Shown one piece after another: positions 8,531 to 38,390 of a stretch of DNA of 39,825 nt. The position numbers were made by a program, and so were the translations under genes. This stretch comes from an uncultured bacterium (GTDB taxonomy: Bacteria; Myxococcota_A; Polyangia; Polyangiales; Houyiibacteriaceae): assembly GCA_937984275.1 (NCBI GenBank), contig CALJYC010000074.1, forward strand, positions 1 through 39,825. The letters are read 5' to 3'. The notes beneath the pieces are model-generated. The model was not told where the DNA came from. It worked only from the letters and a program-made list of their open reading frames with translations, and did no database searches. Each line of letters starts with the position of its first letter. Position 1 is the stretch's first letter.

Positions 8531-11482
8531 TTACGCCCCCCGGTAAAGCGCGGTTCTCTCGTCGTAGACGAGAAGCTCAGCGCCGGCGTCGAGCGGGTCG
8601 CCCTCGAGGGCCGATTTGTCGGGGCGAAAGCCGTCCGTCATGGGCATGCGTTCGACGCGCTTGACCCACGCCGGGCGTTCGCTTGGGTCCAGCCCGACCG
8701 CAAACTCATTCCAGGCCTGCAAATCGAGACCTTGGTTGCCGTGTGTGACCACCACCGCAACGGGACGATCGGCCCCCTCGTGCTCGACCCCGTACACCAC
8801 GGTGTGACGCAGCGGCGCAAAGCCGTAGAGCGAATCCTCGATCGTGCGGGTCGCGACGACGCCGGCCGCCGTTTTCAGCATTCGGCTGCTCCGATCGACG
8901 AACCAAAAGTCACCGTCGGCGTCGAGGCGCAGCACATCCCAGGTGACGAACCAGGTGTCGTTGGCCTCGAAGACGCCTTGCAACAAACGCCTGCCCGCCT
9001 CATCGCCTCCGGTGAAGCTCGCCAAGGGATGGTCGGCATCGAGTTGCGCGAGCAACACGCCCGCCTCGCCTGCTTCGCACCGAACCAGCCGTCCGTGCTC
9101 GTCGCGGCAGAACTCCTCACTCTCGAAGTCGTACCGAACGAGCGCCACGTCAGCGCTTCCGGGGAGGGGGCGCCCGAGCGCACCCACCTTTTCGCCGGAT
9201 GCGTTGGCCAAGACCGCGTTGCCTTCCGTCGCGGCGTAGAACTCGAGAATGCCGACCGGGCCGAAACGATCGACGATGCGCTGCCACACGTCTCGCCGCA
9301 GACCGCTACCGGCGAACAGACGGATCGGGTTTTCGTTATCGGCGGCGGACGGCTCTGCGCGCAGAAGCTCGCGCAACATCTCTCCCGCGTAGAAGACCAC
9401 CGTAGCGCCATATCGGCGAACATCGTCCCAGAACGCTTCAGGGTCGAAGCCGGTCGCAAGCGCCAAGCGGGAACCTCCGACCAACCCTCCTCCGACCGTC
9501 ACCAACATGCCCGCGGGATGATGAAGCGGCAGGCAGCAGTACACGGTATCCGCTGGAGACAACGTACACGCGGCTGCGGCGCCATAAGCCGAGAACGCCC
9601 AGCGTTGGTTGGTGATCTTGGCTGCGCGTGGCTTCTTGCCGCGCCCCGCGGTGAGCATGATGAGCGCCAGGTCACGCGCGCACCCGGGGTTCGGTTCGTA
9701 CCAGCCAGGAAGCTCCACCGTTTCGGGGTCGATGAGCTCCATGTCGATGACGCCCGGAGGGAGCGTTCGTTGTTCGCGCGCGCCGCCGAGCACGAGCACC
9801 TCGGCGATCAGCTCCTTGCCCAGAGCCGCACTCTCGGGGTCTGCAATGAGGAAGCGCGGAGCGGAGCCATGGAGGGCCTCTTCGAGCGTTTCGCGCGAAC
9901 GGCCCGGGCTCAGCAAGATCGGCACCGCGCCAAGTCGGCTCAAGGCGGCGGTCACCGAGAGATAGCTCGGACGCGGCCCCATCAGGACAGCGACCGGCTC
10001 GCCGCGCCGAACGCCGCAACGGATCAAGCCCCGAACGACACTATCGACTCGCCGGTCCGCTTGCGCGTAGGAAAATGCGCGCCCCTCCCAAAGAAAGAAA
10101 GTCCCCTCGGGGTTGGAAGCCGCCTGCTCGGAGAGGGCGAGACCCAGGCTCACCCGGGTGTCCGGCCGCATCTGTTGCAGAACGCTGAGGCGCGGAACCT
10201 GCCAACGTAGACTGTCGAGCTGCTCACCGAGGTCCGCCGCGGACCGTCCGAGCCGCTGCCACCAAGCGCCAACCGTGCCCACGACGGTTCGATAGAACAG
10301 CTCGATGTCAAAATCGACCTCGTCGAAGTCCGCTTCGTCGGGCTCTTCGAGCGGGGGCGGGGCTTGAAGCACTGGAGGCTCCGGGCCGACCCCTTCGCGC
10401 CAGCGAATCCAGCTCGCGACGGTTGGCCAAGTGAACGACATCGCCTGTCTCCCGACGACGAGACCGAAGTGCCCGGCACGCATGGACACCTCGAACAGCT
10501 CGGCGTTGGGCGCGGCGCCGCGGATGGCGCGGATCGCAGATTCGTTGGCGATCGTGTCCCGCTCGCCGACGAAGAACATCACCGGACAGGTGAGGTCCGC
10601 GAGCGTCACGGTGCGGCCGTCGACGACGAAGCCGCCAGAAAGCATTCGATTATGAACGACGAACTCATCGATGAACTTCTTGAGTGCTGGCCCGGGCCAG
10701 GCCACGAAGCCTTCGCCACCGAGAAACCGCCGGCGCGCTTCGCGTTTCTCGAGCGCCTGCCGGTCGTGCAGCTTCCGAACGAAGTCCATGAGCTGGCCGA
10801 CTTCCTTGTGAACCGCGAGGAGCTTGAACCCTGCGCTCGTCAGAGCCCCGGGCAGGCCTTCGAGCTTGTCTAACGGCGCATCGAGCGCGCCCTGGGCAAG
10901 CTCGAACACACGGCCGGCGATGGTATCGTCTATCTTCGGAAGGTTTCGATGGATGTCGACGGGACTCCCAAACGTCACCAATGAAGCGATGCCCTCCGAC
11001 GCGCGGTACGCAGCGGTCTGATAGGCGAACATCCCGCACTGCGAGTAACCGATGACGTGCACGTCGTGCCCTGTTTCCGCCCGAATCCAATCGATTGAAT
11101 CACTCACCGCCTTGATGTGGTCGTCGAGGGTGCGTTTCATGCCGCCCTCTTCTTGCTCGGGCGAGCCAAAGTCGATGACCCAAACGTCGAGCCCCAATTG
11201 CGTCAGCGCGGTGACACCGCTGATGTCGGGCGCGACGTCGTAGATCTCCGCGGTGACCATCAGTGGAGGAATCATGAGCAGCGGCGCTTCGACAGTCGGG
11301 CGGTGGTCGTCCCCGCCGTAGCGTCGCAGCCGTGCGATGCGCATCTGGTGGGCGACCTTGTACGGCGCATGTTCCGGCTCGGTGAAGTGTCCGAGCCTCG
11401 CCAGCTCGAGGGCGTTCTCGGTAGCCATCGCGATGCGGCGAAAAGGCGCGCGCCAACTTGGTTTTCGGCCTGTCCTTGCCAT
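8531..11482 (-). CDS. Fusion protein: N-terminal alpha/beta-hydrolase (PhaC/lipase-like) + C-terminal FATP-like AMP-forming acyl-CoA synthetase
   Basis: - N-terminus: nucleophile elbow HVIGYSQCG with hydrolase-fold spacing.
- C-terminus: FATP/FadD6-like motifs CCLPLHHPAG, VVFYAGEMLRE, FYAATEGN, FVDRSSRMLK and MPMTDGFRPDK.
- The P-loop is divergent (LTAGRGKKPRAA).
- Start may be ATG 11482 or ATG 11428 (MATENAL...). Confidence 0.85.
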   Translation of the reverse strand: MARTGRKPSWRAPFRRIAMATENALELARLGHFTEPEHAPYKVAHQMRIARLRRYGGDDHRPTVEAPLLMIPPLMVTAEIYDVAPDISGVTALTQLGLDVWVIDFGSPEQEEGGMKRTLDDHIKAVSDSIDWIRAETGHDVHVIGYSQCGMFAYQTAAYRASEGIASLVTFGSPVDIHRNLPKIDDTIAGRVFELAQGALDAPLDKLEGLPGALTSAGFKLLAVHKEVGQLMDFVRKLHDRQALEKREARRRFLGGEGFVAWPGPALKKFIDEFVVHNRMLSGGFVVDGRTVTLADLTCPVMFFVGERDTIANESAIRAIRGAAPNAELFEVSMRAGHFGLVVGRQAMSFTWPTVASWIRWREGVGPEPPVLQAPPPLEEPDEADFDEVDFDIELFYRTVVGTVGAWWQRLGRSAADLGEQLDSLRWQVPRLSVLQQMRPDTRVSLGLALSEQAASNPEGTFFLWEGRAFSYAQADRRVDSVVRGLIRCGVRRGEPVAVLMGPRPSYLSVTAALSRLGAVPILLSPGRSRETLEEALHGSAPRFLIADPESAALGKELIAEVLVLGGAREQRTLPPGVIDMELIDPETVELPGWYEPNPGCARDLALIMLTAGRGKKPRAAKITNQRWAFSAYGAAAACTLSPADTVYCCLPLHHPAGMLVTVGGGLVGGSRLALATGFDPEAFWDDVRRYGATVVFYAGEMLRELLRAEPSAADNENPIRLFAGSGLRRDVWQRIVDRFGPVGILEFYAATEGNAVLANASGEKVGALGRPLPGSADVALVRYDFESEEFCRDEHGRLVRCEAGEAGVLLAQLDADHPLASFTGGDEAGRRLLQGVFEANDTWFVTWDVLRLDADGDFWFVDRSSRMLKTAAGVVATRTIEDSLYGFAPLRHTVVYGVEHEGADRPVAVVVTHGNQGLDLQAWNEFAVGLDPSERPAWVKRVERMPMTDGFRPDKSALEGDPLDAGAELLVYDERTALYRGA

Positions 11483-15149: not shown

Positions 15150-17299
<2,150 letters not shown>

Positions 17300-17361
17300 G
17301 TCGTCTTTTTGGGTGATGTTGTGACAATTGGGTCCGGCTAAGGCAGCTTGTTAGGTTGGGG

Positions 17362-19965
17362 ATGAACGACGAAGGGCAGCGTCCCGAAAGCCTCGGGGAG
17401 GAGTCGGAGGCTCGGTACGAGCGTGAGCGCGACGAACAAACGCGCCTTCGTTCGCTCGGTGCTCTGTCGCACATGCTGCCGGTCCTGGCGTTCGTCTACG
17501 CTGCTGCAGCCGTGCTCTTTCTGGTCTCGCCGCCCTTCACCCCCAACACGCCGCACGTGTTCATCTGCGCGATGTCCTCTGCGCTCGTGCTCGTGGTGTG
17601 GGCGGGCATGCGTGTCGACGACCCCCGTTTTGACACCCCGATCTCGACGGCGACCATCTCCATCGCTGCCGGAATGGGGCTCACCATGTTTGCTGTCAGC
17701 GGCGCGATCAGCAACACGACGACGCTTGCGATCGCGATTGTGGCCGCGGGCGCCCTGCTCTACCGTTTCTCGATGTTCGCCGTGATGGTTGTCGTGGTGT
17801 TCGTCGGCTGGCTTCAACTCGCGCACGGCGAGGCGAGGGGCCCATACAGCCTCGGGATGTTCCACCTTTGGGCGGCAACCGTCGTGGGTGCCCTGGTTCT
17901 TTGGTCGCGCCGGCAACTCATGTTCCGACTCCACGAGGAAGCCCAGGAGGCCGATGCGATGCGCCGCCTCGCCACCGAGCAAGCGCTGACGCTGGGACGC
18001 GCGCGAGACGCCGCATTGGCTTCCGCACAGGCGAAGGGGCAGTTCCTGGCGAACGTGAGTCACGAAGTCCGCACGCCCCTCAACGGGATTCTCGGTCTAC
18101 TACAATTGATAGACCCGTCTGCGCTACCGAAGCCGCAAGACGACTACTTGCGCGGGGTCCACAAGTCGGGCCGCTCCCTCCTCGCGATCGTCAACGATTT
18201 GCTGGATCTCTCGAAGATCGAGGCCGGCGAGATGCGTCTCGAATCCGTCGCCTTCGACGTCATCTCGATGACCGATGAGATCGCGCTCAACTATGCATCG
18301 GCCGCGCACGCCAAGGGCCTCGAGCTCATCACCAACATCGGTCCCGACGTGCCGTCCGAGGTGTGCGGGGACCCGCTCCGCCTCCGGCAAGTGATCTCCA
18401 ACCTGGTCAACAACGCCCTGAAGTTCACCAAGGAAGGCGAGGTCATCCTCGGAGTTCGGGTGCGCAATCGAGGCCCATGGCACGTCGACCTCGAAATCCG
18501 CGTCTCCGACACTGGCCTTGGCGTGTCCGAGGACCGCGCGGAGAGCATCTTCCGAGCGTTCTCACAAGCGGACGCGTCCACGACCCGCGAGTACGGCGGT
18601 ACTGGCCTCGGGCTCCCGATCTGCCGGCAGTTCGTCGAGCTCATGGGAGGCGATCTCAAGCTGAAGAGCACCGTCGGAAAGGGCAGCACGTTCTACTTCG
18701 AAGCGCGCTTCGAGCTCGAAGAGAAGCTCAGCGAGGAGCTCCAGGCCGTCACCGAAGCGCTTGCGGGGATGAAGGTTCTAGTGCTCGAGAGTAATAATCG
18801 CGCGCGCGAGACGCTCTGTGCGCAGCTTCAGTCGTGGAACATGGAGGCGTGGGCCACGACCACCTTCGACGGCGCGCTCCGGACGTTTCGATCATCGCCA
18901 CGTCCAAACGTGGTAATGATCGACCTGCGCAGTCTCGGCAAAGACTGGCGAATCCGGGCTTTTGAGCTCAATGACGCCGCTGCGAAATGCGGCGGCTCGG
19001 TCGTTGCAATCTGCTCTCACCGGTACGAGATCAGCGAGTTGGCCGAGGCAGGAATCCGGGTACACGTAGAAAAGCCTATTCGGAGAGCAAAGATCATTGC
19101 GGCCCTCCTCGAAACGCTCAACCGAGATAGCTCTCAGCACCGCCTTCACGAGACGGTCCACCGCCCCTCCCTACCCGCGCCTCCGCCGCGGGAGCTGCAG
19201 TCCAACGGCATGAAGATCCTCGTCGCTGAAGACAACGCGATCAATCTGAAGGTCGTTCACGCGCACCTTCAGGCGCTCGGGTACGAGGTCGACGCCGTGA
19301 ACGACGGTGTCGCCGCACTCGATGCTCTGAAGGAAGGACATCGCTACGCCGCAGTCATCATGGATGGACAGATGCCGAGCATGGACGGCTATGAGACCAC
19401 CCGAGAGCAGAGAGCGCGCGAGTCCGAGTCCGGTCAAAGACGGGTTCCAATCATCGCACTCACTGCGCACGCGATGACCGGGGATCGCAGGACCGCGTTT
19501 GCTGCCGGGATGGACGACTACCTCTCGAAGCCCTTCACCCAGAAGCAGTTGCAGAAGGCGCTCATCCGCTGGGCAGCACGACCGTCCGCCAGCGCCTCGG
19601 AGTTCCCGCCCGATTCGCTCGACACCACGATCACGTCGCAGCTCTTGGAACTCGAAGAAGAAGAACCCGGGTTCATCTGCGATGTGATCGACAGCTTCTT
19701 CCGCACCGCCGAGGAGAGCATCGCCCGAATGAAGACAGCCATCGACGCGGGTGACGTCCAGACGCTGCGGGCGGCTGCCCACATGGTTCGGGGCAGCAGT
19801 CAGCAGCTAGGGGCTCGCCGATTCGGAGCGACTTGCGGCAAGCTGGAGAACATCGCGGCGACAGAGGGTGCCCGCGCGATCGTCGACGACTTGGAACGGG
19901 ACCTCGAGGGGGCACGCGAAGCACTGACAGGCCTCGCCGACCGCGCACTCGATGCGGCGTCCTAG
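17362..19965 (+). CDS. Hybrid sensor histidine kinase: multi-TM sensor, HisKA, HATPase, degenerate REC, REC and HPt
   Basis: - H-box SHEVRTPLNG; G-box GGTGLGLPICRQFV.
- Receiver-like MKVLVLESNN... lacks the acidic pair.
- Canonical REC: KILVAEDNAINLKV...IMDGQMPSMDG...SKPF.
- HPt: AAHMVRGSSQQLG.
- The tracked start 17356 is a TTG; ATG 17362 is preferred. Confidence 0.9.
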   Translation: MNDEGQRPESLGEESEARYERERDEQTRLRSLGALSHMLPVLAFVYAAAAVLFLVSPPFTPNTPHVFICAMSSALVLVVWAGMRVDDPRFDTPISTATISIAAGMGLTMFAVSGAISNTTTLAIAIVAAGALLYRFSMFAVMVVVVFVGWLQLAHGEARGPYSLGMFHLWAATVVGALVLWSRRQLMFRLHEEAQEADAMRRLATEQALTLGRARDAALASAQAKGQFLANVSHEVRTPLNGILGLLQLIDPSALPKPQDDYLRGVHKSGRSLLAIVNDLLDLSKIEAGEMRLESVAFDVISMTDEIALNYASAAHAKGLELITNIGPDVPSEVCGDPLRLRQVISNLVNNALKFTKEGEVILGVRVRNRGPWHVDLEIRVSDTGLGVSEDRAESIFRAFSQADASTTREYGGTGLGLPICRQFVELMGGDLKLKSTVGKGSTFYFEARFELEEKLSEELQAVTEALAGMKVLVLESNNRARETLCAQLQSWNMEAWATTTFDGALRTFRSSPRPNVVMIDLRSLGKDWRIRAFELNDAAAKCGGSVVAICSHRYEISELAEAGIRVHVEKPIRRAKIIAALLETLNRDSSQHRLHETVHRPSLPAPPPRELQSNGMKILVAEDNAINLKVVHAHLQALGYEVDAVNDGVAALDALKEGHRYAAVIMDGQMPSMDGYETTREQRARESESGQRRVPIIALTAHAMTGDRRTAFAAGMDDYLSKPFTQKQLQKALIRWAARPSASASEFPPDSLDTTITSQLLELEEEEPGFICDVIDSFFRTAEESIARMKTAIDAGDVQTLRAAAHMVRGSSQQLGARRFGATCGKLENIAATEGARAIVDDLERDLEGAREALTGLADRALDAAS

Positions 19966-28753: not shown

Positions 28754-30085
28754 TTAGCGCAGCAGGGGCGGTGGATTGGGCAGCGAGAAATGCCGGGATT
28801 GCAGGCAATTGCCAGCGGACACGGCCCCTGCCCTGCGCCGTTCGCCCTTGAGCACTACAGAGGCCGTCATCGAATCGAGCGGCTGCTCCGCCCACGCGAT
28901 CAGCGCCTCGTCGCTTTCGGCAGCAACGACAAACACATCGTCTTGGTCTTGGAGCGCCGACCAAGCGACTTCGGTATTGTCGGCGTTGACCTGATCACGA
29001 ACGATGCTGGCGTTCAAGGGATGGGCGAAGCGGACGCGCCACGCGGCCACCACTTCGGAGCCGTCGTCGTAGATCGCAAGCTCGTCCCCGACCCAGCCGA
29101 GCGCTGTCCACCACGCCACCTGGTCGGACATCCCGCGGCGCCGCAAGAAGCCGTACACGTACCAAGCGCCAAATCGATTCTCGACTTCGGTTGCGTACCC
29201 CTCAATCGGAGATGGATGCGCTGCTTCGGGAAAATCGAACAACGGCAGTTCCGCCCCAAACCCCACCATGACCTCGATGGCGGTGGACGGCGGTGACTCG
29301 AAAGCGGCGGCACGGCCGTTCAAGCCGCCCGACAGCGTGACCGCCGTCATGAAGTCGAAGCCGTACGCATACGGAAAGCTCGAGGCGGAATCGACCAACG
29401 CCACCTCGGGGTCACCCGCACTCGCCCTTGCAATGTCGGTCCTCTCTTTGTGAATCGCATCCCAGTCGATCTCCTCGGGTAGGTATCCGAGCTGCCCGTA
29501 CACCCAGGCGAACGAGGTGTGTGTGGCATCGCCTTCGATCACGCCGCGGACCCCCATCACGCCGTCTTCGGTGTCCGCGTCGGCGCTGACCGCGTCGAGA
29601 TTGAACTGAATGTCTTGAATCGCGTGTGTGAACTCGTGCGCTAGAATCGCCTGCCCGTCGATGTCCTCGTAGTCACGGTCGATTATGGTGATGCTGCGAC
29701 TGCGGCGACTGTAGTAGGCGGCGATCGCGTTGATCCAATACTCGACCTGCGTCTCGGTGAGACTCTCGGACGCCGCAGGGATGAATCCCATCAATCGGAG
29801 GCCGCGCGTGGTCGCGTCCTCGCCGGTGAGGTCTTCGAGGTTGAGGCTGCTGCGAACCTCCTGGGCGTGTTGATCGACGGTAATCGTCCGGATCGTCGGT
29901 CGCTCGACGCCGTCCATACCCAACATCGCCGCTACCGAGTCATAGATGCGATTCTGGCACTCGGCATGGCCGATGTCGCAATGGAGCTCGTCTGTGAACC
30001 TGGTTGGAGCCTGGGTGACGTCGTCTCCGCACCCCGTCGGCCCCATGACTGCAGCGAGCCCGATCACGAAGGCAACGCGCATCAT
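28754..30085 (-). CDS. Lipoprotein with HExxH zinc-metalloprotease motif
   Basis: Signal with lipobox IGLAAVMGPTGC. HEFTHAIQD, followed by a downstream Glu/Asp-rich segment (VIEGDATH). Confidence 0.75.
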   Translation of the reverse strand: MMRVAFVIGLAAVMGPTGCGDDVTQAPTRFTDELHCDIGHAECQNRIYDSVAAMLGMDGVERPTIRTITVDQHAQEVRSSLNLEDLTGEDATTRGLRLMGFIPAASESLTETQVEYWINAIAAYYSRRSRSITIIDRDYEDIDGQAILAHEFTHAIQDIQFNLDAVSADADTEDGVMGVRGVIEGDATHTSFAWVYGQLGYLPEEIDWDAIHKERTDIARASAGDPEVALVDSASSFPYAYGFDFMTAVTLSGGLNGRAAAFESPPSTAIEVMVGFGAELPLFDFPEAAHPSPIEGYATEVENRFGAWYVYGFLRRRGMSDQVAWWTALGWVGDELAIYDDGSEVVAAWRVRFAHPLNASIVRDQVNADNTEVAWSALQDQDDVFVVAAESDEALIAWAEQPLDSMTASVVLKGERRRAGAVSAGNCLQSRHFSLPNPPPLLR

Positions 30086-30202: not shown

Positions 30203-31138
30203 CTATGAAGCGCCGCATAACGCGGCGATTCGTTGCAGCCCCCTCATCCGCTCATTGGAGGGCGGGGCGAGATGACGGAGGCGATATTGCCTTCCGAGCT
30301 TGGCGTACTTGGGCTCTCCAAACCCGTGGTAAGGGAGCAGCTCGTAGGCAGAGGCGCCGCCAGCATCGTTGACGAACTCGACGATGGCCTCGATCTCGTC
30401 TTCAGAGTCGTTGACGCCTGGGATCACCGGCGTGCGCACGACGATGTTCACCTCGGGAAACTCGGCACGGAGTCGTCGGAAGTTCTGGAGGATCTTCCGG
30501 TTCGAGACCCCGGTCACCTCCGCGTGCTTCTCGGGGTCCAGACACTTGATGTCGAAGAACATCCGGTCGGTCAGGGGCGCCACGTCCCTCATCGTCTTCC
30601 AGTTGCACAGCCCAGAGGTTTCGATGGCGGTATCGATGCCACGACTTCGCGCCGCCTCGAGGAGTGCCCGAACGAAGGCACCTTGCACAAGGGGCTCGCC
30701 GCCACTGACGGTGAGCCCTCCACCGGACCTGACGTAGAACGCGTCGTCTTCTTCGACGATGCGCACCACATCGTCCACACCCACCCATTCGCCGGACTCT
30801 TCCAGCGCCCGCGATGGGCACACGAAGGAACAGTCACCACAGTCATCGCAGATGCTCCGGTCGATGCATATCTTGCCTTCAGCGTCCTTGGCGATGGCGT
30901 GCTCCAGGCACACGGTGGCGCATCGATCGCACTCCGCAGGGCCGATGCAGCGGTCTGACGTGTAGACGAGCTCGGGCGCGGTCGATTGGCTCTCGGGATT
31001 GGAACACCACATGCAGGCCAGAGGGCACCCCTTCAGAAAGACGATGGTCCGAATGCCGGGGCCGTCATGAAGTGAGAACTTCTGGATGTTGAAGACCAAT
31101 CCCTTGGGTGCGCCATTGCTTTGGTGGTTCAGAGTCAT
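30203..31138 (-). CDS. Glycyl-radical enzyme activating enzyme (radical SAM, PflA/CutD-like, with two auxiliary Fe-S motifs)
   Basis: ATG 31138 lies behind a GGAGGAG RBS. SLHDGPGIRTIVFLKGCPLACMWCSNPE contains CX3CX2C. Ferredoxin-like CDRCATVC and CDDCGDCSFVCP. The tracked start 31282 would overlap the upstream gene. Confidence 0.9.
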   Translation of the reverse strand: MTLNHQSNGAPKGLVFNIQKFSLHDGPGIRTIVFLKGCPLACMWCSNPESQSTAPELVYTSDRCIGPAECDRCATVCLEHAIAKDAEGKICIDRSICDDCGDCSFVCPSRALEESGEWVGVDDVVRIVEEDDAFYVRSGGGLTVSGGEPLVQGAFVRALLEAARSRGIDTAIETSGLCNWKTMRDVAPLTDRMFFDIKCLDPEKHAEVTGVSNRKILQNFRRLRAEFPEVNIVVRTPVIPGVNDSEDEIEAIVEFVNDAGGASAYELLPYHGFGEPKYAKLGRQYRLRHLAPPSNERMRGLQRIAALCGAS

Positions 31139-31151
31139 GTCTCCTCCCCCG

Positions 31152-33656
31152 CTAAAACTGGTGCTCCGTTCTCCGGATGATCTCGTTTTGCAGGGCCGGT
31201 GTGAGGTCGACGAAGTAGGCGCTGTAACCCGCCACTCGGACCAACAAGTTCCGGTATTTGTCCGGGTCCTGCTGGGCGGCAAGCAGCGTGTCTCGATTGA
31301 TGATGTTGAACTGGTTGTGCCACATCCGCATGTCGCAGGCGGTCCGTATCAGCGCCATCAGCTTCCGGGTTCCGGCCTCACCCACCAATGATGCAGGCGA
31401 GAGCTTCATGTTCAAAAGCCTCGCGGCCCGCTCCTTGTACTGCGCACACTTGGTGCTGCTGATCGACATGAGCGTGGCGGTCGGCCCCTTGACGTCCATC
31501 CCCTGCGAGGGGCTGATACTCTCCGAAAGCGGCTCCCTCGCCTTGCGCCCGTCCGGAGTTGCGCCGACGACGGCGCCGAGGGGAATGTGCGACGTGACCG
31601 ATACGTAGCGCAGGTCGAGCTCGCCACCGAATGCCGTCGTGTGGTGCTGGGCCAAGCGGGCGAAGCACTCCTCGATGTCGCGGCCGATTTGATCGACATC
31701 CGCGTCGTTGTTGCCGTACTTGGGCGCATTCAAACACAGCTGCCGAATCGCTTCCTGTCCTTCGAAGTTGCGGTCGAGCGCGTCGATGAGCTCACGCATC
31801 GCTAGCGTGCCCTCTTCGAAGACGAGCGTGCGAATCGCCGCCAATGAATCGATGACGGTACCAAAGCCCATCACGTCGAAAAACCCGAGGTAAAGCGCTT
31901 TGTCGATCGGACCCGCGTGAATGTCCGTGCAGCTCTCCATGCAGAGGTCGTGCAGCATGGAGAACATCGGCGAGGCGATGTGCCGCGACTTGAGAGTGTC
32001 GGATACGTACTGCTGAATGAACGTGTGTTGGACGACGTTCTCCAGTTGTAGGGTGAATGCGTCCCAGAGCTCGTCGAAGGTCGTGAAGGTCCGGGGGTCA
32101 CCCGTGCTGATCCCGACGATCCCGTCGCCGTAGCAGGTCATGCGACCGTCGCGGAGCGTCATCTCCAGGATCGCACCGAGGTTGATCCAAGCGCATCCGG
32201 TGGCGATGCCCTCTCGGTTGAGCATCTTGGTTTCAGAGCATCCCGTCACGCAGTAGTCGTTGGCCTCCTCCATGCTGCCGCCTTTCGCGACGAGCAGGGG
32301 GATGATCTCGTCGTCGCAAAACAGCTTGGGGAATCCCGAGCCATCCTTGATGGTCTCGCAGACGGCGTGGAGAAAGGCGTTGGGCGTGCGGGTATGGATG
32401 CGCGCGGCAAGGTCGGGATAATGCAGCGGGAACTCCCGCTTCGACCGTAGAATCAGATAGGAAAGCTCATTGCTTGCGTCGTGACCGTCGGGTGTGAGAC
32501 CGCCAATCGTGGTGGCCTCCCAGTGCGCAAACCCGTCGGTCAGGGAGGGCTGCCCGGGCTTGGCGTAGACGTCGGTGCTCCTGGCCATGCCGATCCAAAT
32601 CGACTCCAACAACACGAGCGCTTCGTCGTCGGTGAGCCGACCTTCGTCAATGTCTCTGCGATAGTAAGGATAGAGGTACTGGTCGATGCGGCCGTTGCCA
32701 ACGACGCCGCCTATCGCCTGTTCGAGGCGCGAGACCGTTTGGATGAACCACTGGGACTGAACCGCCTCGCGAAAGGTGCGCGCCGGATGCTCCGGGACCC
32801 GTTCGCAAATCGCGGCGATTTCGAGCAGCTCGCGGCGACGCTCTGCACGCGGCTCATCCGCCGCCTGGGACCGGGCCAGCTCGGCGTAGCGGTGCGCAAA
32901 CGCGACCATCGCATCACAAACCAAGCACACGGCTTCGAGAAATGGCTGTTGCTCGACGTAGGCGGCCGTGTCGATCGGGTCGAGCGCCTCGAGCCGCTCC
33001 CTAGCCTCCCGTCGAATCGAACCGATCCCGCGCTCGAGCACCTTCCCGTAATCATGGGCCCAGGCCAGCATCGAGCGACCCGCCGCAGTCGGCGTGACGA
33101 CGAAGATCCGTTCCATCAGCCGCCGCGTCTCTTCGGGAAGCGCGTTCATCGTGGCCGTGTGGTACGCATTGCGTTGCCAGTAAGGGAGGATGTCTTCTTT
33201 GAGCGCAGCGACGTCTTCCTCGGTGAGGACGATCGGGTCACCCGGCTTGCTGGGCACGAGCTCGTGGGGATGGGTATAGAAGCGGCCAGGCCCTACGAGC
33301 TCGCAGTAGACGACCGCGTAGCGTCCCGCCGATCCGGCGCTCCCGACGAGAAGCTCCTCATCCTCGATGTGGATCGGGTGGTGCGCGAGGATATGCGCTA
33401 GCGCTCTGCCCCAGCGGAGCACCATCGGCTGCCCTTCGGTCGCCTGCATGGACTCGGTGAGCAGGCGGGCGCGGTCGATGTTGAGACGGATCGGTTGGTC
33501 CCGAAACCCCTCGAGCATCCTCTGAATTCGCCCGCGCTTGGACTGTGCTGTGCCGCCGACCAGCCCGATCGGCTCGCCCCGCTCGATGCGGGCCTCGTGC
33601 GGTGTCAGCACCTTGGAACCAGGAGAGGCGGGCGCGGATTCGACGGCTTCGAGCAT
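31152..33656 (-). CDS. Glycyl-radical enzyme, PFL2/DhaB1-like family, substrate unknown
   Basis: ATG 33656 lies behind an AAGGAG RBS (834 aa). Glycyl-radical signature LLVRVAGYSAYFVDL (Gly codon 31227-31229). Thiyl loop CVTGCSETK (Cys codon 32238-32240, Glu two residues later). Family-typical NGRIDQYLYPYY and ISPSQGMDVKGPTA. Confidence 0.9.
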   Translation of the reverse strand: MLEAVESAPASPGSKVLTPHEARIERGEPIGLVGGTAQSKRGRIQRMLEGFRDQPIRLNIDRARLLTESMQATEGQPMVLRWGRALAHILAHHPIHIEDEELLVGSAGSAGRYAVVYCELVGPGRFYTHPHELVPSKPGDPIVLTEEDVAALKEDILPYWQRNAYHTATMNALPEETRRLMERIFVVTPTAAGRSMLAWAHDYGKVLERGIGSIRREARERLEALDPIDTAAYVEQQPFLEAVCLVCDAMVAFAHRYAELARSQAADEPRAERRRELLEIAAICERVPEHPARTFREAVQSQWFIQTVSRLEQAIGGVVGNGRIDQYLYPYYRRDIDEGRLTDDEALVLLESIWIGMARSTDVYAKPGQPSLTDGFAHWEATTIGGLTPDGHDASNELSYLILRSKREFPLHYPDLAARIHTRTPNAFLHAVCETIKDGSGFPKLFCDDEIIPLLVAKGGSMEEANDYCVTGCSETKMLNREGIATGCAWINLGAILEMTLRDGRMTCYGDGIVGISTGDPRTFTTFDELWDAFTLQLENVVQHTFIQQYVSDTLKSRHIASPMFSMLHDLCMESCTDIHAGPIDKALYLGFFDVMGFGTVIDSLAAIRTLVFEEGTLAMRELIDALDRNFEGQEAIRQLCLNAPKYGNNDADVDQIGRDIEECFARLAQHHTTAFGGELDLRYVSVTSHIPLGAVVGATPDGRKAREPLSESISPSQGMDVKGPTATLMSISSTKCAQYKERAARLLNMKLSPASLVGEAGTRKLMALIRTACDMRMWHNQFNIINRDTLLAAQQDPDKYRNLLVRVAGYSAYFVDLTPALQNEIIRRTEHQF

Positions 33657-33766
33657 GGCCTCGACTCCTTTCGATACAGCTTGCACGAATGCACCGTAAA
33701 CATGGGAACACGGGCCGAGCGCGCGCAATGGCCGAGGCTGACCTGTCGATGTATAATATTGACATC
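33657..33766. promoter_or_regulatory. Divergent control region between the glycyl-radical enzyme and the AraC regulator, with a local AT-rich island
   Basis: 110-bp spacer. TATAAT at 33752-33757 is immediately followed by TTGACA at 33759-33764, just upstream of ATG 33767. A TGCA-N4-TGCA symmetric site lies nearer the enzyme start. No promoter can be assigned with confidence. Confidence 0.3.
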
Positions 33767-34522
33767 ATGCGCGTGAGTTCCTGCATCCTGCTTCCTCGGA
33801 CGCTTCGAGTTTTCGAACGTCACGCGCACCGCAGCCACGAGGCTCACTATGTGATCGCGGGGCGTGGATCATTCGAGGTCGGGAAGCAACAGCTCGCGGT
33901 GCGCGCAGGGGATTTCTTCTACACCTGCCCCAACACGACGCACCGAATGATCGTACCGGAGGGGGAGTATCTCTTACAGTACGTTGCCTTCCTAGAGCTC
34001 GACACCGATCACGACGCAGATCTGCGCGATGACCTGGATGCACTTCTCGGCGAAGGGAGGATCCACCGCCTCGGCGACCGCTACCATGCGCTCTTTGCGC
34101 AAATGAGCCGCCAGTCTCTGTCGAACGATAGACGTCAACAACGAGCCGCCTCCGCCAGGATGACCGGATTCCTCTACGACTTGATGGTAGACACACCCAC
34201 GGCAAGCGGAATCCATCCGGCGGTCGAGCAGGGGCTGGAGTTCATGCGCTCACACGTCGGCGTGCCGTACAGCCTGCATGATCTCGTAGCGGACGTCGCC
34301 CTCGACAAGTCGTACTTCATCCGGCTCTTCAAGAAGAACATCGGGGTGCCTCCAATGAAGTACGCGATGAACCTAAAGATGAGCGCCGCTTCGGATTTGC
34401 TCCGCACCACCACCGAGCCCCTCGCCGCCGTCGCCGCGCGCGTCGGTTTCGACGACGAGTACCACTTCGCCAAACGTTTCAAGCAGTGGAGCGGAACCTC
34501 TCCAGGCGCATATCGTCGGTGA
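33767..34522 (+). CDS. AraC-family transcriptional regulator with N-terminal cupin sensor domain
   Basis: Cupin-like HAHRSHEAHYVIAGRGSFEV...GDFFYTCPNTTHRM. C-terminal AraC HTH: SYFIRLFKKNIGVPPMKYAMNLKMSAASDLL...VGFDDEYHFAKRFKQWSGTSPGAYR. ATG 33767 is preferred; earlier in-frame starts would overlap the divergent gene. Confidence 0.85.
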   Translation: MRVSSCILLPRTLRVFERHAHRSHEAHYVIAGRGSFEVGKQQLAVRAGDFFYTCPNTTHRMIVPEGEYLLQYVAFLELDTDHDADLRDDLDALLGEGRIHRLGDRYHALFAQMSRQSLSNDRRQQRAASARMTGFLYDLMVDTPTASGIHPAVEQGLEFMRSHVGVPYSLHDLVADVALDKSYFIRLFKKNIGVPPMKYAMNLKMSAASDLLRTTTEPLAAVAARVGFDDEYHFAKRFKQWSGTSPGAYRR

Positions 34523-34973: not shown

Positions 34974-35133
34974 GAGCTCCGGGCGCGATGGGAGAGCACG
35001 GGCCGGGCGGAGAGCCGGGCCTGCCTTTGTGTGAGTGATTTCACAGCAAAGCGGCGCCGAAAGGGGGTACGCTCGCCGTCCGGTCGAACGCGCGCAACCG
35101 GTGGCCGGAAGCGTCGATAACCATTGCATCGAC

Positions 35134-36606
35134 ATGTCACGATCCCTGCCAACACATCCGGGGTGCATCCAGCCCCGTTCCTTTCGATTTGCCACGGTAG
35201 TCCCGGCCGTCCTGTGGTTGCTCGCCGCCTTCGGTTGCGGCGAGGTGACTTGCCCGGAGCCTCTGGGCAATGTCGACGGAACCTGCCAGGACGTGGAGCG
35301 CGTCACGACGGAGGCGCCCAAACCCGGTGTCGAGCGCTGCGACGGAAAGGACAATGACGGCGACGCGGAGGTGGATGAAGACTGGCCGGAGCTCGGCGAG
35401 GCCTGTGGCGAAGGGACGGGCGAGTGCGTCGAGGGTGAATACGTCTGCGCCGACGACGGGATGGGCATCGTGTGTGAGGGCGCGGCCGGGCCGAGCGATG
35501 AGGTTTGCGACGGAAAGGACAACGACTGCGACGGCACGGCGGACAACGGCCCCGAAGAAACGTGCGACGGCGAAGACAACGACTGCGATGGGCTTGTGGA
35601 CGAAGGCGTGCTGTCTATGAAGGAGGAGCCGGTGTTCGACGACCTCGCGAGCGTCGCGGCGGTCGATGGCGGGTTCGTGGTGACTCGGCGCGTGGGCGAG
35701 CGCATCTTCGCCGAGACGTATGACGAGCGGGGCCTCAAGACTGGGCTAGACGACCAGACCCCTTACCACGTAGCAAACCTGGATTTCCTCGAATCCGATG
35801 GCTTTGGTCGCGAGGTGTTGGTGTCGCTTGGCGTCTGGCGGGCCGACACCATGGCGATCGAGGTCGACCACTCACTCGCCCCTTTCATCATCGAGAAGCA
35901 GACGCTCCACGAGGACTGGGACAAACAGGGGATCCTCTCGTTCAGCACGCCGCCGTTCTACCCTCGGGTCGACGCTTCCGTTCGACGCGTCGTTGGCATG
36001 CTAGGGTCACTGGACTTCGGCGTAATCACCACCGGGCCGAGCAACATCCGAGGCTTCCTCAGCGCGCCAACATTGGTGCCGGGCCTGGATTTCGTTGACG
36101 GCTTCGCCAGCGACGGCCCGTACATCGTCTGGCCCGATGATGAGAACTTGCGAGCTGCCTTCTTACTCGACGACGGCCGCCTGGTGCAGGAGATCGACAT
36201 CGGCCGCGGTGCGTCTCCGAGCGTGAGCATCGCCCCTCCCGGCTTGGGGGTGGCATGGGTCTCCGGGAATGAGATTGGTCTGTCGGTGCTCCACGCCCTC
36301 TCGCTCCAATGTGCCGGCGGACCGTTGTGCAATTCGTCGGTTAGCGAGGATCAGCTGCTCGATGCTGCGCATGGTCCGACGGGGCTCGTGTACCACGAAG
36401 CCTCGAGCTCCTGGGTGGTCGTGGCCAACAGGCAGATCGTCGTCGTGGGTGCAGGCCCCTCGGGCATCGCGGTCAAGCAGGTCGAGCAACGTGGTGACGC
36501 CCCCTTCCCAAACCGCATCGACGCTGTGGTGAGCGGTCAGACCATTGCAGTGATGCAATCGTCGCTTTGGGGGGAGTCCGCCCTAACCTTTCTCGGGTGC
36601 CTCTAA
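35134..36606 (+). CDS. Lipoprotein with three CDGxDNDxDG Cys/Asp-rich repeats (myxobacterial MopE-like metal-binding-type repeat) and a ~330-aa C-terminal domain
   Basis: ATG 35134. Signal with lipobox VLWLLAAFGC. Repeats CDGKDNDGDAEVDED, CDGKDNDCDGTADNG and CDGEDNDCDGLVDEG. Confidence 0.8.
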   Translation: MSRSLPTHPGCIQPRSFRFATVVPAVLWLLAAFGCGEVTCPEPLGNVDGTCQDVERVTTEAPKPGVERCDGKDNDGDAEVDEDWPELGEACGEGTGECVEGEYVCADDGMGIVCEGAAGPSDEVCDGKDNDCDGTADNGPEETCDGEDNDCDGLVDEGVLSMKEEPVFDDLASVAAVDGGFVVTRRVGERIFAETYDERGLKTGLDDQTPYHVANLDFLESDGFGREVLVSLGVWRADTMAIEVDHSLAPFIIEKQTLHEDWDKQGILSFSTPPFYPRVDASVRRVVGMLGSLDFGVITTGPSNIRGFLSAPTLVPGLDFVDGFASDGPYIVWPDDENLRAAFLLDDGRLVQEIDIGRGASPSVSIAPPGLGVAWVSGNEIGLSVLHALSLQCAGGPLCNSSVSEDQLLDAAHGPTGLVYHEASSSWVVVANRQIVVVGAGPSGIAVKQVEQRGDAPFPNRIDAVVSGQTIAVMQSSLWGESALTFLGCL

Positions 36607-36614
36607 GAATCAGC

Positions 36615-38390
36615 ATGCGGTGGCTTGGTTGCGTCCTTGCTGCAGTGCTCGCTGCATTCACCGCCGCCCCGGCGTCGGCGGAGGGCGACCAAGCGGGCGC
36701 TTTGTCCGAATCCACGCGTTGGTTGGTGGTGCCTGCGCGTGGGGGGGCCTCCGACACCGCTGACGAGGGGGTTAGCGTCGAGGGGCTTCACAGGTCCGCG
36801 GAGGCGTTGCGCCAAGAGCTCGTAGTTCGTGGCCAATCGGTCTGGCGCGCCGATCGTGCGTCGGAGCGGTTCGAAGTCGTCGGTTCGGCACCTGCTCCGC
36901 AAATCAGCCAGAGCGACATCGATCTGTGGGTCGAGCGGTCGCGCGCGGCGGTGCGATATCTGGCGCGCGCGGACTACAAAGCGGCGAGGCGCGAGCTCAA
37001 GGCGGCGCAGCGTTTGGCCAACCGGGCAGCGGCCGAGCTCAATCGTGAAGCGGCCCGAGCACAACAGGTGCTCGACACGTGCCTGTTCATGGTGCGTGCC
37101 TACGTCGAGACCAAGAACGGCGCGGAGGCGCGTCGACAAGCGCGCGAGTGCAGGCGCTTGGTGCCGAGGGTCGAGCCTACTGCGTTCCGACACACGCCGG
37201 AGGTCAGGGAGCTCTTGGCCGAAGTCGACAAGGAGATGGCCTCGGAAGCTCCGGGGACGTTAGAGGTCCGGAGCACGCCACCAGATTGCTTGGTGCGAAT
37301 CAATGGCGTGGAGTTTGGGCGCACGCCGCTGTCGGGCATCGAGTTGCCGGTCGGGGCGTACCGACTGCAGGTCGAATGTGAGGAGGTGCATCGTGGTCGC
37401 ATCCACCGGGTCGGCATCGCAAGCGGCGAGAACGTGTTCGCGTTTGACGCGGCGCTCGAGCGTGCCGTCCACACGCGTCCGGTGCTTCACTTTGAATACG
37501 GCGCGCCGGCGGCATGGCGGAAGCGCATGGACCTCGCCCAACAGGTGGCGAGCATTCTCGGTGGCGCGAGCGTGTTGGTGGTGAGCGGTCTCAGCTCGAG
37601 CGTGGTGCGCGTCGACCTTAGCGCCGAGGGATACGAGGCCGCGTCGGCGTGGCTTGCAGTGCGTGATGGCGCGCCGGAGTCGGACGACGTGCGGCGGGCA
37701 CTCGATGCCTTGTTCGAGGGGCGCTCGGTGGATTTCACAGGCCCCCATCCGATCGCCCGTGCAAGCTGGCGAGCCGAGCTTGCACCGGGCGCGGCCGCGG
37801 GAGCGGCAACCGCAGCAGCGACGGAAGCCGAACCTGAGCCCAAGAAGGGTGTGCCGCGGCCCCGTAACCAACGAATCGCGGGGTGGTCTCTCTTCGGAGT
37901 GGGCGTGGCAAGCATCGGGGCAAGCGTTGGGCTTCACGCCTGGCGCGGTGAGCTCGGCGATCGATTCATCGAAGCGCCCGCCACCTTGAACGCGGCGCAG
38001 CGGTGGAACGATGTTCGCATCGGAGTGTGGACGACCGCCGCCTTTGGGGGAGCAGCAGCAAGCGCCGCCATGCCGCTGCTGTTGCCGGACTACGAGCGAA
38101 CGCCGTGGTGGGGGTGGACCCTCGGCGCGGTGGGCTTGGGGCTTGCCGGCTATTCGATTTACGAGGGGGTCACGATGACGAGCTGCCCCGAGCCGTACCT
38201 TGCTGACCAGGCGGCGGTTCGTGCGTGTGTCGCGCGTGGGCAGGAAGCGGGCCGGCTGGCGTTGGCGTTGGCCGGTGCCGCGCCCCTACTCACGATCCCT
38301 CTGGTGTATCTGTTTCGGCCGCTGCGAGCGGAGCCGTCGGTTTCCGTGACGGGGCAAGGCGCCGTGGTACAGGTTCGCAAAGTGTTCTGA
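36615..38390 (+). CDS. PEGA-domain membrane protein (signal peptide, helical region, PEGA, Ala-rich linker, C-terminal TM helices)
   Basis: ATG 36615 lies 9 nt after the previous stop. Signal MRWLGCVLAAVLAAFTAAPASA. PEGA-like LEVRSTPPDCLVRINGVEFGRTPLSGIELPVGAYRLQVEC. Several hydrophobic helices near the C-terminus, which ends RAEPSVSVTGQGAVVQVRKVF. Confidence 0.8.
   Translation: MRWLGCVLAAVLAAFTAAPASAEGDQAGALSESTRWLVVPARGGASDTADEGVSVEGLHRSAEALRQELVVRGQSVWRADRASERFEVVGSAPAPQISQSDIDLWVERSRAAVRYLARADYKAARRELKAAQRLANRAAAELNREAARAQQVLDTCLFMVRAYVETKNGAEARRQARECRRLVPRVEPTAFRHTPEVRELLAEVDKEMASEAPGTLEVRSTPPDCLVRINGVEFGRTPLSGIELPVGAYRLQVECEEVHRGRIHRVGIASGENVFAFDAALERAVHTRPVLHFEYGAPAAWRKRMDLAQQVASILGGASVLVVSGLSSSVVRVDLSAEGYEAASAWLAVRDGAPESDDVRRALDALFEGRSVDFTGPHPIARASWRAELAPGAAAGAATAAATEAEPEPKKGVPRPRNQRIAGWSLFGVGVASIGASVGLHAWRGELGDRFIEAPATLNAAQRWNDVRIGVWTTAAFGGAAASAAMPLLLPDYERTPWWGWTLGAVGLGLAGYSIYEGVTMTSCPEPYLADQAAVRACVARGQEAGRLALALAGAAPLLTIPLVYLFRPLRAEPSVSVTGQGAVVQVRKVF

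Follow-up and report, generated by a model that had tools for sequence, protein, structure and literature searches.

The question raised by the locus described here is which reaction is catalysed by a glycyl radical enzyme (GRE), one of an oxygen-sensitive class, whose surroundings name no substrate. The gene lies on a 39,825-nucleotide stretch of contig CALJYC010000074.1 from an uncultured bacterium (the whole of which is referred to as the window), together with a gene for a radical S-adenosylmethionine (SAM) activase and a divergent gene for an AraC-family regulator. An earlier reading of the window, made from its letters only (the sequence-only reading), had described the enzyme as an orphan and as the best candidate in the window for an undescribed activity. 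Findings reported below place the enzyme, on the basis of sequence and predicted fold, in the superclade of sulfonate C-S lyases and, within that superclade, in a distinct and widespread subfamily that lacks one of the three residues of the known sulfonate site. The reading somewhat favoured here is that of a self-contained, substrate-inducible anaerobic catabolic module acting on a small anionic beta-hydroxy substrate, which would most likely be an organosulfonate distinct from both isethionate and (S)-2,3-dihydroxypropane-1-sulfonate ((S)-DHPS).

The GRE and activase genes (Table 1) are real, intact and under strong purifying selection, and cannot be attributed to chance because E-values were about 1e-172 and dN/dS against six orthologs ranged from 0.066 to 0.098. 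Translation confirmed the two motifs first read in the GRE, LLVRVAGYSAYFVDL (Gly810) and VTGCSETK (Cys473/Glu475), the former including RVAGYSAYF in agreement with the superfamily signature RVxG[FWY], and Pfam matches to PFL-like (PF02901, 573 bits) and Gly_radical (PF01228, 96 bits) bore out the assignment to PFL2-type enzymes with an activase. Between the GRE stop codon TAG and the activase ATG at 31138 lies cgggGGAGGAGac, and this short gap with its ribosome-binding site implies co-transcription and translational coupling of the two genes, which either overlap or are 3–40 nt apart in orthologous loci. Also seen directly, as originally described, were the activase CX3CX2C motif (Cys38/42/45, positions 31004–31027) within CPLACMWC (residues 38–45) and two ferredoxin-type Cys clusters (Cys-rich insert at residues ~63–106). 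The activase scored 351 bits on TIGR02494 (cut-off 174) and 417.5 bits on the HpsH model NF048010, slightly short of the cut-off of 430.

Relationships of the GRE were readily apparent from both sequence and structure comparisons. The best matches among PDB sequences were the isethionate sulfite-lyases IseG of Desulfovibrio vulgaris (5YMR, 907 bits) and IslA of Bilophila wadsworthia (7KQ3, 848 bits) and the (S)-DHPS sulfolyase HpsG of B. wadsworthia (6LON, 848 bits), compared with 528 bits for CutC. Identities to IseG, HpsG and IslA were 51%, 47% and 48.5%, respectively, those three being 61–73% identical to one another. An AlphaFold2 model of the GRE (predicted local distance difference test (pLDDT) 85.6, pTM 0.89), compared by Foldseek, superposed on the same three enzymes with TM scores of 0.90–0.94 and root-mean-square deviations of 2.2–2.4 A, and the diol dehydratases ranked next at ~33% identity. 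The description of the enzyme as an orphan was thus not upheld. Transfer of the radical from Gly to a Cys thiyl, the Glu base and the type of activase are common to the window GRE and to CutC, the glycerol and propanediol dehydratases and HypD, which differ from it in being 30–33% identical and in lacking both the Arg/Arg anion site and Trp374 (IslA numbering). HpfG of Klebsiella oxytoca, a DHPS dehydratase, is a sulfonate GRE that does not cleave the C-S bond and so provides a precedent for the sulfonate as a binding handle; it belongs to a different clade, and the window GRE scored 435 bits on the HpfG model NF048009 against a cut-off of 1000.

A search for homologs of the GRE yielded 120 proteins with 64–96% identity to it, nearly all from uncultured metagenome-assembled genomes (MAGs) labelled Polyangiales, Myxococcales (including SG8_38), Deltaproteobacteria, Abyssobacteria or Poribacteria. 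Relatives were present in 40 species-level genomes of GTDB (39 at 64–94% identity, one at 46%), none of which is an isolate. The subfamily so defined has at least 118 sequences, and counts given below refer to 118 near-full-length members including the window GRE. In a neighbour-joining tree built with 50%-identity cluster representatives of a set of 1.8 billion proteins, the subfamily was monophyletic and the superclade comprised IseG, IslA, HpsG and several uncharacterised subfamilies with pockets R/Q/F, R/N/R, R/Q/R and N/N/T; the 50%-identity library is too coarse to hold a representative of the subfamily itself and is used here for the pocket diversity of the superclade. The subfamily is one of several uncharacterised members of the superclade and nothing categorically new. 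A literature search found no paper characterising it, and the C-S eliminase GREs named in a June 2026 review are IslA, IseG and HpsG only (PMC13450708). As a separate observation, three cluster representatives of the neighbouring P0121-type subfamily (P0133, P0136 and P0141) had Tyr or Phe at the position of the catalytic Cys, at least P0133 and P0136 also lacked the RVxGY glycyl motif, and these proteins may be non-catalytic or non-canonical GRE relatives.

What sets the subfamily apart is its pocket. In the C-S lyases, Arg189, Gln193 and Arg678 (IslA numbering) make up the sulfonate site, and Glu470, Gln193, the two arginines and Val680 are essential (PMC13450708; PMC8473560; PMC6453916). 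The three residues of the site are reported to be conserved in IslA homologs and lacking in other GREs, and Trp374 to be confined, among GRE eliminases, to IslA enzymes (PMC8473560; PMC6453916). The window GRE has the Gly loop, the Cys-x-Glu motif, both sulfonate-anchoring arginines, the Trp and the essential Val in common with IseG and IslA, as well as the eliminase fold and a partner activase that carries two auxiliary Fe-S clusters; Cys473-Ser-Glu475, found in all 118 members, and the two-cluster activase are the marks of a GRE 1,2-eliminase. The third residue of the sulfonate site, in contrast, is Ala in every member (Table 1), the residues that pack the pocket in the isethionate enzymes (Thr312 and Phe682 in IslA, Thr310 and Phe680 in IseG) are Gly317 and Val687, and a deletion of seven residues lies directly before beta1. 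Compared with HpsG in its own numbering, with residues drawn from the June 2026 review and the 6LON alignment, the corresponding site (Arg183/Gln187/Arg672) has lost its Gln to Ala and Arg466 is replaced by Lys. The resulting signature, R/A/G/K/R, was invariant within the subfamily, and the same pocket was matched by no characterised enzyme compared.

Table 1. Features of the GRE locus, with residues of the GRE, their equivalents in IslA and their state among 118 subfamily members.
Feature	Position in window	Strand	IslA equivalent	State in subfamily	Remarks
AraC/XylS-family regulator	33728–34522	+			264 aa; N-terminal cupin/AraC_binding, C-terminal double HTH
Divergent control region	33657–33727				71 bp; alignment of 27 orthologous spacers
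GRE	31152–33656	-			834 aa from ATG
GRE-activase gap	31139–31151	-			13 nt with GGAGGAG ribosome-binding site; read directly
Radical-SAM GRE-activating enzyme	30203–31138	-			311 aa; Pfam Radical_SAM/Fer4_12; TIGR02494
GRE Gly810	31227–31229	-	Gly805	kept 117/118	catalytic; mapped to codon
GRE Cys473	32238–32240	-	Cys468	kept 118/118	catalytic; mapped to codon
GRE Glu475	32232–32234	-	Glu470	kept 118/118	catalytic; mapped to codon
GRE Arg194	33075–33077	-	Arg189	kept 118/118	pocket; alignment mapping
GRE Ala198	33063–33065	-	Gln193	Ala 118/118	pocket; alignment mapping
GRE Gly317	32706–32708	-	Thr312	Gly 118/118	pocket; alignment mapping
GRE Lys477	32226–32228	-	Arg472	Lys 118/118	pocket; alignment mapping
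GRE Arg683	31608–31610	-	Arg678	kept 118/118	pocket; alignment mapping
GRE Trp379			Trp374	kept 118/118	pocket; alignment mapping
GRE Val685			Val680	kept 117/118	pocket; alignment mapping
GRE Ser686			Pro681	Ser or Thr	pocket; alignment mapping
GRE Val687			Phe682	Val or Ile	pocket; alignment mapping
GRE Gly193			Phe188	Gly, Ala or Ser	
GRE Ala191			Ser186	Ala 113/118	
GRE Pro189			Glu184	Pro 108/118	

Taken together, the substitutions listed in Table 1 would enlarge and re-line the anion pocket. In HpsG, which acts on a C3 substrate, the residues at 312 and 682 are Ala and Ile and thus smaller than those of the C2 enzymes, and the subfamily, with Gly and Val in the window GRE, lies further along the same trend; small or aliphatic residues at both positions suggest, by analogy with HpsG, a substrate larger than C2. 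It is fairly probable that the substrate is neither isethionate nor (S)-DHPS; a sulfonate is judged its most likely class, at about even odds. Candidates include sulfolactate, amino-hydroxy-propanesulfonate and other C3/C4 sulfonates. The proposal of an undescribed activity stands because the enzyme, although placed near characterised C-S lyases, does not conserve all of their substrate contacts, having Ala for Gln193 and Gly for Thr312.

The enzyme would be less novel if it were an ordinary ortholog of the isethionate sulfite-lyases or DHPS sulfolyases, i.e., if it bound the same sulfonate and released sulfite together with acetaldehyde or hydroxyacetone. Such an enzyme would account for the score of the GRE on the NCBIfam equivalog NF048011 ("HpsG"), which at 1125 bits exceeded the cut-off of 1000, for the near-threshold score of the activase on the HpsH model, for the conservation of both arginines, Trp374, Val680 and Cys-x-Glu, for the close fold match, and for the label "isethionate sulfite-lyase" carried by a relative in one JGI record. 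Control scans, however, indicated that NF048011 gives no substrate identity because IseG (1553 bits), HpsG (1498 bits) and IslA (1503 bits) scored alike on this model, and the window GRE was about 400 bits below any of these characterised members; the identification as HpsG was dropped on these grounds. Identity to the characterised isethionate enzymes (48–51%) is below the ~60% that marks the edge of the IseG cluster in a sequence similarity network (PMC6453916), and the subfamily forms a separate clade. Gln193 is replaced by Ala in all members, and the Q193A variant of IslA had undetectable activity (PMC8473560); the replacements at Thr312, Arg472 and Phe682 point in the same direction. Genes for sulfoacetaldehyde reductase, Dsr, DHPS and taurine metabolism were absent nearby and, unlike the IseG and IslA loci, the window locus lacks a microcompartment, carries an AraC gene and belongs to a member of the Myxococcota; unlike HpsG, the GRE has no linked genes for DHPS uptake or sulfite respiration. 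An ortholog of this kind is accordingly considered unlikely. Independently of this question, NF048011, which is described as a (2S)-3-sulfopropanediol dehydratase model, was noted to over-annotate in that it accepts both the Gln-less subfamily and isethionate sulfite-lyases.

Hints as to substrate were obtained from the neighbourhoods of a few distant members of the subfamily. In loci L047 and L052/L053, a TetR-GRE-activase unit is flanked by a genuine sulfoacetaldehyde acetyltransferase, Xsc (TIGR03457, 767–771 bits, cut-off 676), and further by a small VOC protein, a second thiamine diphosphate (ThDP) enzyme (PRK05858-like), a short-chain dehydrogenase/reductase (SDR) and an AMP-forming CoA ligase. 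Upstream of the unit in L042, and on its strand, are the same PRK05858-like ThDP enzyme, two SDRs and a solute-binding protein. Locus L054 carries a second GRE and, at a distance of 4 kb, a TauE-family gene, and L009 has an APC-family permease directly after the activase. These few neighbours hint at organosulfonate metabolism. In their own right, the Xsc-VOC-ThDP blocks (L047, 3192–7440; L052, 4094–8164; L053, 3969–8039), which are divergent from TetR-GRE-activase and the CoA ligase in loci whose GREs are subfamily members at 64% identity, look like an undescribed sulfonate pathway, the second ThDP enzyme resembling 2-hydroxyacyl-CoA lyase. Two other genomes seem rich in GREs. In L050 (8010–12549), from an uncultured "delta proteobacterium" MAG, a GRE 46% identical to that of the window has an R/N/R pocket and is separated from its activase by an SDR, with pieces of a further GRE-activase pair upstream; in L054 the second GRE (16889–17449) stands beside an SDR.

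A second alternative is a GRE eliminase or dehydratase in which the two arginines have been repurposed to bind a non-sulfonate anion such as a hydroxy-carboxylate, a phosphate ester or a phosphonate. Loss of the Gln, the third member of the sulfonate triad, the smaller size of several pocket residues and the absence of sulfur-metabolism genes from the window and the Myxococcota loci are all consistent with such an enzyme, as is the variation among pockets of neighbouring subfamilies (R/Q/F, R/N/R and N/N/T), which indicates that specificity drifts quickly. Small residues at 193 and 312 would, in addition, lift the IslA-type steric block on migration. Retention of Arg194, Arg683 and Trp379 without exception, and of Val685 in all members but one, argues for the sulfonate instead, since the arginines are reported as lacking in other GREs and the Trp as confined to IslA enzymes among GRE eliminases, and so does the presence of Xsc and TauE neighbours in distant members. 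The non-sulfonate anion is rated as rather improbable. A decaying or silent remnant without function in an aerobic host, to which the lack of linked pathway genes and the mainly aerobic habit of cultured myxobacteria (bioRxiv 10.1101/2021.07.06.451402) might be thought to point, is highly improbable in view of the intact reading frames with every catalytic residue in place, the low dN/dS values (0.07–0.10) and the dedicated regulator and ribosome-binding site conserved across ~30 species.

Several points weigh against the favoured reading of an organosulfonate-specific module. Neither the sulfonate transporter, sulfite reductase and sulfite exporter genes nor Xsc were present in the window or the Myxococcota loci, and the sulfonate assignment draws on homology and on few neighbourhoods, these outside the Myxococcota. 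Where Xsc is adjacent, it could itself be the desulfonating step, with the GRE doing something else, and with the essential Gln lost the bound anion could be no sulfonate at all. Pocket residues were mapped by alignment, the neighbour-joining tree carries no support values, and the AlphaFold2 model was least confident at the beta1 pocket strand (residues 190–199, mean pLDDT 63) and after beta8 (residues 688–692, below 50). These low-confidence segments coincided with the regions in which the subfamily departs from IseG, IslA and HpsG, and could reflect either real structural divergence or a shallow alignment.

Under the favoured reading, the cupin-AraC regulator would sense a small molecule and switch on the divergent two-gene operon under anoxia. 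From what is known of the family, the [4Fe-4S]/SAM site of the activase would then abstract a hydrogen from Gly810, and the resulting radical would pass to Cys473 as a thiyl radical that takes a hydrogen from the hydroxyl-bearing (carbinol) carbon of the substrate. Glu475 would deprotonate the hydroxyl, and loss of the vicinal leaving group (1,2-elimination) would yield a carbonyl product, the anionic beta-hydroxy substrate being held throughout by Arg194 and Arg683. Pathway genes would not be linked because the product would enter central metabolism directly. Whether the R/A/G/K/R subfamily carries out an undescribed radical reaction is a more tentative matter, put at somewhat less than an even chance. 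Such a reaction could be C-S cleavage of a sulfonate that is abundant in the sea or in soil and has no known GRE route, such as sulfolactate, cysteinolate or 3-amino-2-hydroxypropanesulfonate, or a sulfonate-anchored dehydration, deamination or 1,2-migration. Reactions of the latter kind would be made possible because Gln193 and Thr312, which the authors of the IslA work named as the steric bar to migration chemistry (PMC8473560), are both lost.

Results for the regulator upheld the divergent cupin-AraC gene of the sequence-only reading but not its 110-bp spacer. The protein matched Cupin_2, AraC_binding, HTH_18 and HTH_AraC in Pfam, as expected of the AraC/XylS family. Across 27 orthologous regions, the 39 nt upstream of the earlier start (33728–33766) varied mostly at third-codon positions, and the 13 residues encoded there, MAEADLSMYNIDI, were conserved at the protein level with synonymous changes. 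Since the ortholog is also called as a 264-residue protein, the start is most likely at 33728 rather than 33767. On this basis, the spacer is reduced to 71 bp, and the apparent TATAAT and TTGACA of the longer spacer are coding sequence. An AGGAG ribosome-binding site 6–7 nt before the GRE ATG and a TAnnnT element resembling a -10 box ~45 nt upstream were conserved among the 27 spacers, the remainder of which was unconserved. A scan for sigma-70 promoters and terminators found nothing exceeding shuffled expectation, and no sigma-70 consensus promoter was present in the spacer. Short inverted repeats noted by eye had raised the possibility of an RNA element in the 5' untranslated region, which was rejected when RNAalifold predicted 0 pairs; Rfam gave no matches within the window.

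The conserved unit consists of regulator, enzyme and activase. This triad was kept in ~30 Myxococcota species, in nearly every Myxococcota locus of sufficient length, with identities of 72–94% for the GRE and 59–91% for AraC, and genes outside it varied among lineages. Clustering of open reading frames from 51 loci identified GRE, activase and AraC (TetR in distant loci) as the only recurrent genes, other recurring clusters (WS/DGAT, malic enzyme, PGA_cap, glycosyltransferases) being set aside as lineage synteny. Subfamily members at 64–69% identity had a TetR regulator in place of AraC, in MAGs labelled Spirochaetales, Thermodesulfobacteriota, Abyssobacteria and others. A VOC-fold gene does follow the AraC gene in the window, as first described, but its inclusion in a conserved block was not borne out, for it was found in none of 55 related loci (tblastn of window proteins against 51 loci and gene calls for four more); nor is it orthologous to the Xsc-adjacent VOC gene of L052, and it was rejected as a pathway partner. 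Linked microcompartment, dehydrogenase, transporter and small-subunit genes were absent from the window, in agreement with the sequence-only reading, and likewise from the ~30 orthologous Myxococcota loci, and aldehyde/alcohol dehydrogenases, shell proteins and small subunits were conserved in none of the related loci. The substrate could indeed not be read from window context. This lack of linked genes suggests a product that passes straight into central metabolism or, alternatively, partner genes that are unlinked.

Lipoprotein or signal-peptide N-termini were seen in neighbouring proteins, in agreement with the flanking secreted lipoproteins described earlier. One of these, a predicted 443-residue lipoprotein (28754–30085, minus strand), had no Pfam matches and carries HEFTH, an HExxH motif, and is possibly an undescribed metalloprotease. 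It was found downstream of the activase (directly or after a few inserted genes) in closest relatives only, at 57–70% identity, and is for this reason attributed to lineage synteny and placed outside the GRE unit. On the other side of the unit, a MopE-type Cys-rich secreted protein (35035–36606) and a PEGA-domain protein (36567–38390), encoded on the plus strand by open reading frames that overlap by 40 nt, form a pair that was also conserved beside the unit in closest relatives only. Elsewhere (8531–11482, minus strand), a 983-residue fusion of an alpha/beta-hydrolase with an AMP-binding (adenylating) domain has an unusual architecture and is unrelated to the GRE unit. The remainder of the window is myxobacterial in flavour, with a Ser/Thr kinase, TPR and PEGA proteins, MopE-type Cys repeats and a hybrid histidine kinase.

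The host was placed in the Polyangiales because of synteny over ~10 genes with MAGs of that name, including NMO at 94–98% identity. All relatives of the GRE are metagenome-derived, one of them from Myxococcales SG8_38 on a contig named WOR_8-12, which presumably denotes White Oak River estuary sediment at 8–12 cm. Window content says nothing on respiration, and uncultured Myxococcota have been documented in anoxic habitats (bioRxiv 10.1101/2021.07.06.451402). The view that the host is aerobic and a GRE physiologically unexpected therefore found no support, though for the host genome itself it was not disproved. The host is proposed to be an uncultured bacterium of Polyangiales type that is exposed to anoxia in its sediment or soil habitat.

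Organosulfonates rank among the main currencies of carbon and sulfur in the sea and in soil. The GRE described here represents a large and phylogenetically broad sister subfamily of the known sulfonate C-S lyases, with a pocket signature that is diagnostic at the sequence level, and with its simple three-gene architecture, easily cloned, it is a good candidate for a new activity that can be assayed cheaply. An annotation trap comes to light as well, as the score above the NF048011 cut-off means that an automated pipeline would call the GRE a DHPS enzyme, and the equivalog would in this way label as HpsG a set of proteins in which a residue essential in IslA is missing. Should the substrate prove to be isethionate or DHPS after all, Gln would be dispensable in another pocket context; should it be new, GREs would gain a reaction and uncultured Myxococcota an anaerobic trait. 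The three C-S-cleaving GREs so far characterised all come from sulfite- or sulfate-reducing Desulfovibrionaceae. If the proposal of an undescribed reaction is true, uncultured Polyangiales, whose phylum is seen as one of aerobic predators, would join the anaerobic cycling of organosulfur in sediments.

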